Sequence record: PQ287641.1
Source of the DNA: Pseudomonas phage HHBS51_1
Length of the DNA: 64,000 nt
Strand: one strand, 5' to 3'
The translations under genes were made by a program, and so were the position numbers. Positions 54,240 through 55,010 of this stretch are shown here, in pieces; position 1 is the first letter of the stretch; each line of letters starts with the position of its first letter. The notes below the pieces were generated by a model. The model was not told where the DNA came from. It saw only the letters and a list, made by a program, of their open reading frames with translations, and searched no databases.

Positions 54240-54720
54240 GTGGCGGCCGAGTGAGATTCGAAAGCTATCTGGTAATTAGGATTGGTTGGCGATGTTGCAT
54301 TATGGAAAGTTCGTGGACGGTGGATCGAGGATTTTGTGTGGTGATTGGATGAATTGTGGAAAATCGCCGATTCTGACTGGATTTTTGGGGTCGGCCGCGT
54401 CGAGCTTACCGGTAATTTACGAAACCGGTAATTAGGGCCTAGCCTTAGTGCCGCGTGGGTTTGAAGGGCTTTAACGGATACTTTCCGGTTTCGGACGCAG
54501 CCGCAAAACTATTCTACAGCGAAAATCGATTGCCCAATCCTAATAGAAAAAATCTATCACGGACGTTACCTATCTTTAAAATTAATAAAATTAATAGTAA
54601 TTTGGTAATTTGGTATACTTTAGTATTTGAAAGCCTTGCGGCACTAAGCCTGTACACTTCCCGTCAAGTTTCCGATTCCGCTCAACTCGCGGCAGGGTCG
54701 CCGGAAACTTCCGGACTTCC
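54240..54720. repeat. non-coding module B, homologue of module A: GGTAATT(T/A)G iterons, inverted-repeat arms (54441-54455 / 54637-54651), ~180-bp AT-rich core, 16-mer CCCGTCAAGTTTCCGA (54660-54675)
   Basis: Iteron-like copies at about 54269, 54409, 54424 and 54597-54614 (tandem). Arm sequences differ from those of A only by paired, compensatory changes. GGACGTTACC half-site at 54561-54570. No credible ORF; ORF 54455..54937 is low-complexity. Confidence 0.6.
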
Positions 54721-54829
54721 AATCCATGGGTCGCGGCAACACCACGGCGGACTAAGCTGCAAGTGCCAAAACTCGACGAACGGAACCGGAAATTTGGGAG
54801 CGCGACAGAATCGCTCAGCTGGACATATT

Positions 54830-55010
54830 TCTAACATTCGATTTAACACTCAACCCAAACACTCACCGCCATCGTCTCCCGCCAACCACCGACTCGACCC
54901 TCACCCACCAGCAGACCGCCCATATAACATCCTATAACACCACCTAACACTCATTCACCATCAAACCCACCCAGACCTACAGGCCACCCACAAGCAGCCC
55001 ATAGACGCGA
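54830..55010 (+). other. strongly C/A-rich, G-poor tract (about 9% G) with degenerate AACACTCA(N)CC repeats, in the 5' region of the putative terS
   Basis: Base composition was read directly. It is complementary in character to a G/T-rich tract at 54280-54400 on the other side of module B. Confidence 0.5.

Follow-up and report, generated by a model that had tools for sequence, protein, structure and literature searches.

Strand-composition arms of opposite sign flank the packaging end and a terS promoter of a Pbunavirus

Two tracts of opposed strand composition, one G/T-rich (54280-54400) and one C/A-rich and depleted of G (54830-55010), lie in the genome of Pseudomonas phage HHBS51_1 (record PQ287641.1). 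Both fall inside the 965-bp gap between a primase-type gene (52425-54164) and the small terminase gene terS (55130-55699). The window analysed here is the whole stretch of 64,000 nucleotides, to which all coordinates refer; it belongs to a Pbunavirus (PB1-like Pseudomonas aeruginosa myophage). It is well supported that the tracts are the outer, compositionally mirror-image arms of a cis-acting region extending from the primase gene to terS. The arms themselves are a real, conserved feature; our confidence in a mechanism is low to moderate. We tentatively favour, as possible rather than probable, a reading in which the C/A tract acts as an attenuator or insulator by loading Rho and also contains a conserved protein site, with the G/T tract as its mirror-image partner. 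Roles at the level of DNA (packaging, recombination, replication) are live rivals.

The plus strand of the G/T tract is 37% G, 33% T, 18% A and 12% C; that of the C/A tract is 44% C, 32% A, 14% T and 9% G. GC skew was scanned in 120-nt windows across the whole 64 kb (mean 0.00, standard deviation (sd) 0.12). The highest value, +0.63 at 54271 (about 5 sd), belongs to the G/T tract and the lowest, −0.76 at 54853 (about 6 sd), to the C/A tract; the respective runners-up are +0.43 and −0.37. The opposed skews described in the initial annotation are thus real and represent the genome-wide maximum and minimum. Their extents by C-minus-G count, 54231-54400 and 54801-55050, are slightly wider than those given originally. 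Viewed as plus-sense RNA, the C/A arm supplies the top two C>G windows of 80 nt in the 64 kb (C−G = 32 and 30; sd 6.4) and lies in a C>G bubble 250 nt long; for minus-sense RNA, the G/T arm ranks first among the C>G windows of the genome. The C/A tract also contains the longest G-free run in the window (55 nt, 54919-54973; the next is 31 nt) and 44 YC dimers, and ATG, GTG and TTG are absent from its plus strand.

The 1.1 kb round both tracts matches about 300 phage records, with 99.6% identity to Kara-mokiny kep-wari Wadjak 3 and 97.5% to the reference phage 14-1. Fifteen diverse Pbunaviruses were aligned, and the skew is kept in all 15 (+0.49 to +0.78 in the G/T arm, −0.62 to −0.72 in the C/A arm). 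The G/T arm occurs in two or three allele groups which are only 51-60% identical to each other, and every allele is C-poor (5-12% C). In phages whose G/T arm is so diverged the C/A tract is 86-97% identical. Divergent phages retain 86-94% identity over the C/A tract and 92-99% over its core (54898-54985), against 73-79% at the third codon positions of terS; overall the core stays at 91-100% where these positions are at 73-92%. Since it evolves more slowly than terS third codon positions, the C/A arm is not neutral and is under purifying selection. Composition is therefore conserved in both arms, and sequence as well in the C/A core. The 5′ third of the C/A arm tolerates insertions and deletions (+39 nt, −11 to −13 nt); E217 carries a 39-nt tandem duplication within the arm (locus L005; aligned to 54866-54900).

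The 3-mer correlation between the G/T arm and the reverse-complemented C/A arm is about zero (−0.09 to 0.26), so that the arms are different sequence types, and the possibility that they are inverted copies of one motif class was ruled out. The 3-mer preferences of the G/T arm do resemble those of G-rich tracts in other genera (r = 0.4-0.6). TGGATTT was considered as a conserved motif of the G-rich arm and rejected: Aeromonas phage Gekk3-15 has five copies, and just 12 of the 20 lineages contain TGGATT, whose occurrence mostly follows composition.

The comparison was extended to relatives identified through TerS (33-53% identity), namely Gekk3-15, the E. coli Wifceviruses, Xanthomonas XcP1 and about 20 IMG/VR lineages. 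About 15 of the 20 lineages have the tracts arranged as G-rich, AT-rich and C-rich, followed by terS (chance 1/6; binomial p = 1.4e-8). Where the gap is clean, 11 of 15 have positive skew to the left and negative skew to the right of the AT-rich core (p = 1e-4). Defining the gap by open reading frames (ORFs) failed for several of these loci because stop-poor C-rich tracts yield spurious ORFs. G-rich arms are commoner than C-rich arms, and some lineages have the G-rich arm only. The C-rich zone of several lineages does not stop at the proximal promoter but extends as far as the terS start codon. The physical genome end of the Wifcevirus SP13, a phage of the direct terminal repeat (DTR) type, falls 360 nt before terS, inside the AT-rich core; a G-rich arm lies on its left. 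The statement that this is not ordinary intergenic composition holds more strongly than it was originally made, because the layout is conserved far beyond the genus. A full-text literature search combining pac-site, small-terminase and G-rich/C-rich skew terms found no paper, and the skewed arms are not described in the Pbunavirus literature cited here.

The arms and the elements between and beside them are as follows, with distances measured from the pac cut.
52425-54164, plus strand: primase/helicase-type gene, equivalent to 14-1 gp75, at the left edge of the gap (ORF list; relatives annotate DNA primase)
54190-54219, plus strand: intrinsic terminator 3′ of the primase gene, with an 8-bp GC-rich stem, TTCG loop and T-run (terminator scan)
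54231-54400, plus strand: G/T-rich, C-poor arm, comprising 54280-54400 and a shoulder (GC-skew scan and C-minus-G count); the G/T tract lies at −247 to −127
54394-54506, minus strand: three reverse copies of YGCGGC (GCCGCR at 54394, 54450 and 54500), left of the core
54526-54527, no strand: mapped pac end, where the packaging series is initiated, with ...CAGCGAAAAT before the cut and CGATTGCCC after it (two end-mapping studies)
54530-54630, plus strand: AT-rich core with GGTAATT iterons and the sigma-70 promoter P040 (TTAATA-17-TATACT, 54591-54619; transcription start site (TSS) 54630, at +104)
54631-54829, plus strand: structured, conserved 5′ part of the P040 leader, with three forward copies of YGCGGC (54637, 54688 and 54732)
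54830-55010, plus strand: C/A-rich, G-depleted arm, lacking a start codon and predicted to be unstructured (skew, folding and codon scan), at +303 to +483
54923-54957, plus strand: invariant 35-mer TATAACATCCTATAACACCACCTAACACTCATTCA, in which TATAACA is repeated at 10-nt spacing (identical in 15 of the 15 aligned phages)
55002-55038, plus strand: terS-proximal sigma-70 promoter P041 (TAGACG-18-TACAAT; TSS 55038, at +512), adjoining the C/A arm, which extends to its −35 element
55130-55699, plus strand: terS, an ORF of 189 amino acids (match to E217 TerS, PDB 7UXE, E = 2.5e-125), with its ATG at +603

The position of the pac end was taken from two independent studies. In JG024, 36 of 161 long nanopore reads begin at 59,376 ± 5 and a matching pac restriction fragment is seen (Ipoutcha et al., PMC10913387); in Ab28, nucleotide 1 corresponds to fixed read terminations (PMC4482731). 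Both positions map onto the same nucleotide of the window, 54527, and several further phage records begin at the position equal to it. The end of the packaging series is thus fixed and next to terS, which starts 603 nt downstream of the cut, as is required of a pac site. By other authors the genus is said to have headful packaging and circularly permuted genomes, which fits pac-initiated headful packaging. The label of terS 5′ region originally given to the right-hand part of the gap was correct, the match of the downstream ORF being to the cryo-EM structure of E217 TerS; genus-wide, terS is about 58 kb away from terL (E217 TerS literature). The whole region is a pac/terS control region of known kind, as in SPP1, where pac overlaps the terS promoters. 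Among the aligned Pbunaviruses listed, 28 nt round the cut (AAAACTATTCTACAGCGAAAATCGATTG) are conserved even where all sequence to the left is replaced, conservation restarting about 20 nt before the cut. Directly to the left is a hypervariable, mosaic zone (54220-54505) with two or three allele groups only about 50% identical, which from its alignment looks like a recombination boundary at the packaging site.

The AT-rich core is bracketed by the YGCGGC and GGTAATT motif arrays in a dyad arrangement. Module B (54576-54675) is a 74%-identical repeat of module A (8308-8407). Both modules have dyad arrays (54394-54738 and 8108-8491, respectively) of three reverse GCCGCR copies to the left and three forward YGCGGC copies to the right, spaced about 45-58 nt apart. 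The same left-reverse, right-forward layout is also found upstream of terS in distant relatives (loci L030, L031, L033, L037, L032, L056 and L018), and the array is a likely candidate for a protein-binding array. GGTAATT occurs at 54271, 54411, 54427 and 54604, so that the G/T arm is flanked by iterons at 54271 and 54411/54427, and also at 8336, 8413 and 8443. The iterons adjacent to the core are genus-specific (GGTAATT in Pbunavirus, ATAGGTA in Gekk3-15, GATACG in Wifcevirus), and iteron zones are seen in relatives at about 1220-1350 of L018 and about 1205-1580 of L016. The copy at 54604 and a related AGTAATT at 54597 overlap the −35/spacer region of P040, which hints at autoregulation. Module A has the core layout of module B yet lacks the skewed arms, a −10 element of the P040 type and a pac end; the absence of both arms and the −10 element there indicates that the C-rich spacer and the upstream promoter occur together.

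Oxford Nanopore (ONT)-cappable-seq of 14-1 (Putzeys et al., 10.1101/2023.10.13.562163) placed only two plus-strand TSSs in the gap, those of P040 and P041. Both promoters are of the sigma-70 type, and both transcription units extend through gp76/terS in 14-1. The 50-nt strings upstream of the two TSSs are 100% identical between the window and 14-1, and the TSSs are thus at 54630 and 55038, in agreement with two promoter-like sites from a promoter scan of the window. The C/A tract consequently lies inside the 500-nt leader of the P040-to-terS transcript, and the P041 mRNA starts beyond it. The G/T tract falls between the primase terminator, which precedes it, and the P040 TSS. The hairpin and T-run of this terminator are invariant or nearly so in the aligned Pbunaviruses; a terminator at this place is annotated in DP1, LBL3 and JG024. 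No known primary transcript carries both tracts, and the 14-1 data set holds no transcription unit for gp71-gp75. On the minus strand of the core, no TSS is reported in 14-1 and no promoter-like site was found in the scan. The longest 14-1 read from the gp77 promoter P043 crosses a bidirectional terminator and runs antisense over the whole of terS; it ends at about 55059 (14-1 59828; mapped by offset), where the C/A arm and P041 have their right edge.

P041 has an unusual, conserved upstream element, (CC)ATAGACGC, followed after 17 nt by TATACT or TACAAT (ATAGACGC-N17-TAtAcT in relatives). An element of this type is common to lineages with about 40-50% TerS identity, for example at loci L030, L031, L037 and L032, where it lies at about −100 to −60 from terS; the leaders of these lineages are C/A-rich, often with no clear Shine-Dalgarno sequence. 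In PBJ (L010) there is a 16-nt duplication of the P041 −10 region (CCATAGTACAATCGCG; aligned to 55020-55035).

It had been proposed that, if transcribed as one RNA, the two tracts could pair over a long range and enclose module B. The TSSs at 54630 and 55038 and the terminator at 54190-54219 place the G/T tract outside the known primary transcripts, and on that point the model is not supported. The short complementary segments quoted in its support do exist, the 9-nt string TGGTTGGCG at 54283 being complementary to CGCCAACCA at 54880. A match of at least 9 nt, however, arises in 24% of dinucleotide shuffles of both tracts, and the quoted complement is therefore at chance level. The predicted duplex energy, −71.8 kcal/mol, equals that of the shuffles (−70.0 ± 5.3; z = −0.34), so the complementarity is purely compositional. 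Nor is there sequence-specific co-evolution, as the G/T tract diverged (51-60% identity) while the C/A tract of the same phages stayed at 86-97%; pairing by specific sequence is not supported.

The C/A tract by itself has a different standing. A long, C-rich, G-poor, unstructured and ribosome-free leader is a textbook Rho substrate, and it is because the C/A leader has this character that we favour the Rho-loading reading. Rho utilization (rut) sites need C-rich, G-poor RNA of at least about 70-80 nt, and here 44% C and 9% G are sustained over 181 nt. The tract is predicted to be unstructured and untranslated, with a minimum free energy (MFE) of −8.2 kcal/mol per 181 nt, as against −62.5 kcal/mol per 199 nt just upstream in the P040 leader, and with none of the three start codons. 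No significant structure was found in the P040 leader (z = +0.60 and −0.68). The tract is carried by a real transcript, the P040 TSS of 14-1 being at the equivalent of 54630 in a phage 97.5% identical here. The composition of the G/T arm survives about 50% sequence turnover, as expected of an element read by composition, such as rut. A motif search of the C/A arm found no Hfq ARN repeats, no Crc CA-motif and no RsmA GGA. A covariance-model scan of 53000-57000 with Rfam gave no match at E ≤ 1, and a tRNA scan found nothing.

In the mechanism we envisage, Rho would load on the C/A arm and stop most transcription from P040 short of terS. The dosage of terS would then be set by the proximal P041, which starts where the C/A arm ends; over-expressed TerS lowers the infectivity of E217 (PMC9611059). 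The invariant 35-mer and the core at 54898-54985 would form a sequence-specific layer, probably a protein site upstream of P041 or a part of pac recognition. By symmetry, the G/T arm might stop leftward transcription from the AT-rich core before it could run antisense into the replication genes. The C/A tract resembles the rut sites known from untranslated leaders and early regions of phages, such as lambda tR1 (rutA/rutB; the C>G "bubble"), in being C-rich, G-poor, unstructured, ribosome-free RNA between a promoter and the gene it gates, and in that composition outweighs sequence and indels are tolerated. It differs in its unusual length (180-250 nt), in carrying an invariant 35-mer, in having a mirror-image partner across a DNA cleavage site and in that no 3′ ends are reported there.

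Several observations weigh against Rho loading as the function. The 14-1 tables list no termination site in the terS leader, although Rho-dependent ends are often heterogeneous and their absence is hence uninformative, and full-length P040-to-terS reads exist (TU045, 14-1). A rut site needs neither an invariant 35-mer nor an excess of A over T beside that of C over G. With no minus-strand TSS or promoter-like site, the role suggested for the G/T arm has no transcript to act on. An insulator confined to the upstream leader fails to explain the C-rich zone that reaches the start codon in several relatives. G-rich arms are more widespread than C-rich ones, and the arms may therefore not share one function. 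Dyad symmetry round a DNA cleavage site suits DNA-level models equally.

The DNA-level model with most to recommend it, which we consider plausible if rather doubtful, is one of packaging architecture, in which the arms would be wrapped or looped into a terminase complex (TerS decamer and TerL) round the pac cut. The arms would be flexible, hairpin-free duplex rich in CA/TG steps, and the C/A core a TerS recognition element of the pacR type. The location of the pac end between the arms speaks for this model, terS being directly downstream as it is at the pac sites of SPP1 and P22. The motif arrays and the arm composition are dyad-symmetric about the core, the G/T arm sits between GGTAATT iterons (54271 and 54411/54427), the C/A core evolves more slowly than synonymous sites, and module A has the core with neither pac end nor arms. 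The DTR-type Wifcevirus end in the AT-rich core, 360 nt from terS with the G-rich arm to its left, points the same way. The arms are, on the other hand, 127-483 bp from the cut, beyond known pacL/pacR or cosB elements, and duplex-binding proteins need no strand asymmetry over 120-180 bp. The arms are also not inverted copies (3-mer correlation −0.09 to 0.26, against 0.4-0.6 among G/T arms), and the G/T arm has a hypervariable sequence. In vitro, E217 TerS did not bind DNA appreciably (PMC9611059). In comparison with described pac regions (SPP1 pacL-pacC-pacR overlapping the terS promoters; P22 pac in gene 3; P1 pac), the present region is alike in lying directly upstream of terS, with a mapped series-initiation end, short motif repeats on both sides of the cut and embedded promoters. 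It differs in that the arms are further from the cut than known TerS boxes and that the TerS of this family is not known to bind DNA. We know of no described pac site with 120-180-bp arms of opposite strand composition. It is rather unlikely that the skew reflects single-stranded 3′ tails at the pac break. Resection in the 5′-to-3′ direction after cutting or injection would leave the G/T-rich (keto) strands, top on the left and bottom on the right, and the skew would be either a signature of deamination (C to T, A to G) or selected, as GT-rich pads for RecA-type invasion in circularisation or recombination-dependent replication. RecA prefers GT-rich single-stranded DNA. GC and AT skews are both keto-ward on the 3′-ending strands on both sides, with the same coupling in the closer relatives. 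Counted per site, the most frequent top-strand changes within the C/A arm are G to A and T to C, the zone left of the cut is mosaic and hypervariable, and third-position composition leans likewise at the end of the primase gene (last 500 nt) and the start of terS (first 110 nt). These third-position gradients are within background noise, however, and the AT-skew coupling is not significant over all 20 lineages (13/20 and 14/20). The 300 bp nearest the cut are unskewed, the arm boundaries are sharp, and purifying selection on the C/A arm (86-97% against 73-92% at terS third positions) means that it is no neutral footprint. Known asymmetries of single-strandedness (the heavy strand of vertebrate mitochondrial DNA; bacterial leading/lagging GC skew) likewise couple G>C with T>A on one strand and switch sign at a defined point; here the scale is about 150 bp rather than kilobases, an origin would have the reverse polarity, and one arm is under purifying selection.

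The pairing model can be recast so that composition alone suffices: read-through RNA would pair the G/U arm with the C/A arm in any register, enclosing module B, and could hide the site of Rho loading or in some other way act as a switch of terS expression between read-through and P040 transcripts. A hypothetical RNA of 54165-55145 is predicted to form 67 G/T:C/A pairs (65 in the ensemble), and for other alleles and Gekk3-15 the prediction is 13-34 pairs in their 100-nt extremes; the opposite compositions are co-conserved while sequence turns over. This is nonetheless unlikely, and we would put its probability low: a strong conserved terminator separates the primase gene from the G/T arm, the mapped TSSs are located between the two arms, shuffled tracts are just as complementary, the Wifcevirus gives 0 pairs, and some lineages have a G-rich arm with no C-rich arm. 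The 3-mer content of the G/T arm, kept across genera, further points to a function of its own. More broadly, the arms might be a composition-encoded bipartite element across the PB1-like clade, acting by read-through pairing that masks the Rho site or as keto-rich strand-invasion pads, to which we attach only a slight probability. Were pairing true, expression of terS and hence packaging would be licensed by read-through from the replication operon and not by a local promoter; were the pads true, terminase cutting would be coupled to recombination-dependent replication. Another improbable role is that of a bidirectional replication origin made of the AT-rich core and dyad YGCGGC arrays, the arms giving an outward-moving 3′-to-5′ helicase a G/T-rich track or denying priming sites to the opposite strand. 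An AT-rich core with dyad motif arrays resembles the origins of superfamily 3 (SF3) helicases, the second copy (module A) recalls P4 ori/crr, and the region directly follows the primase genes; the SCUT-S1 authors also proposed an origin at the AT-rich pac region. The skew polarity is nevertheless that of a terminus, as the cumulative skew peaks at the region where an origin would show a minimum, module A has the core and no arms, and genus-wide the cumulative-skew minima are in the DNA polymerase region (Banzai paper). The initial annotation had offered, as a fallback, a C/A-rich leader acting as an unstructured translational enhancer or protein-binding platform. Its premise stands in part, since the tract is in the P040 leader, is predicted to be unstructured and has a slow-evolving core. 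As a direct translational enhancer or ribosome standby site for terS it is very unlikely to act, because the P041 mRNA lacks it and a distance of 120-300 nt separates it from the start codon. The unstructured, G-free character of the tract is what such a function would call for, and in several relatives the C-rich, Shine-Dalgarno-poor zone does reach the terS start codon. In the window, though, the tract ends 120 nt before the ATG, an AGGGA Shine-Dalgarno-like element lies just 5′ of the ATG and outside the tract, and the G/T arm is left unexplained. Hidden protein-coding sequence across the gap is wholly improbable. ORFs of 160-219 amino acids are annotated or listed there (54455-54937 in the window; coding-sequence equivalents are E217_00077, R26 gp47, JG024 gp77, NH-4 gp77, and those of Baskent and PBJ). 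These ORFs span P040 and its mapped TSS and end in the C/A arm, which has no start codon and contains indels of −11, −12, −13 and +39 nt; coding potential of the arm was ruled out on these grounds, and the ORFs are most likely artefacts of a stretch that is stop-poor through depletion of G and T.

Pbunaviruses rank among the Pseudomonas phages most used in therapy, and there has been dispute over their mode of packaging and the ends of their genomes. One map now joins the pac end, two terS promoters, the motif arrays and the two compositional arms. It offers a target of about 800 bp for the study of packaging initiation and of terS dosage control, and equally for synthetic genomes and rebooting junctions and for transducing plasmids that carry pac. 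Should the arms act solely through their composition, they would represent cis elements of an unusual kind.

Repeats elsewhere in the window were also noted. The octamer CCACCAGC, the reverse complement of E. coli Chi GCTGGTGG, is at 54905 in the C/A arm; it is conserved and oriented for entry at 54527, though its use by the host is reported to be absent. Pseudomonas RecBCD reportedly does not use E. coli Chi, the Pseudomonas Chi being GCTGGCGC. Genome-wide there are 11 copies of GCTGGTGG (11455, 12214, 17495, 21166, 24761, 25404, 26596, 51158, 52823, 54905 and 60602) against 4-7 expected from a Markov model, a weak excess. With 54527 as genome start, the first six copies have one orientation and the last five the opposite. 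In Gekk3-15 the octamer is found twice, in the same orientation, within the C-rich arm. In the gene clusters to the right of terS, there is a repeated element made up of ...GGGTTTCGCGTTTCGATGAGG and, after it, a hairpin-like GAGGTRACTATACCTAAGTCACCTCAT (44511-44556, 60368-60467, 60992-61058 and 62439-62484; families D4 and D5), and this element may be a repeated regulatory unit. Dense C/T-rich direct repeats (CTCGGCCTTCTTCT...) occupy 46130-46515 (families D1 and D3).

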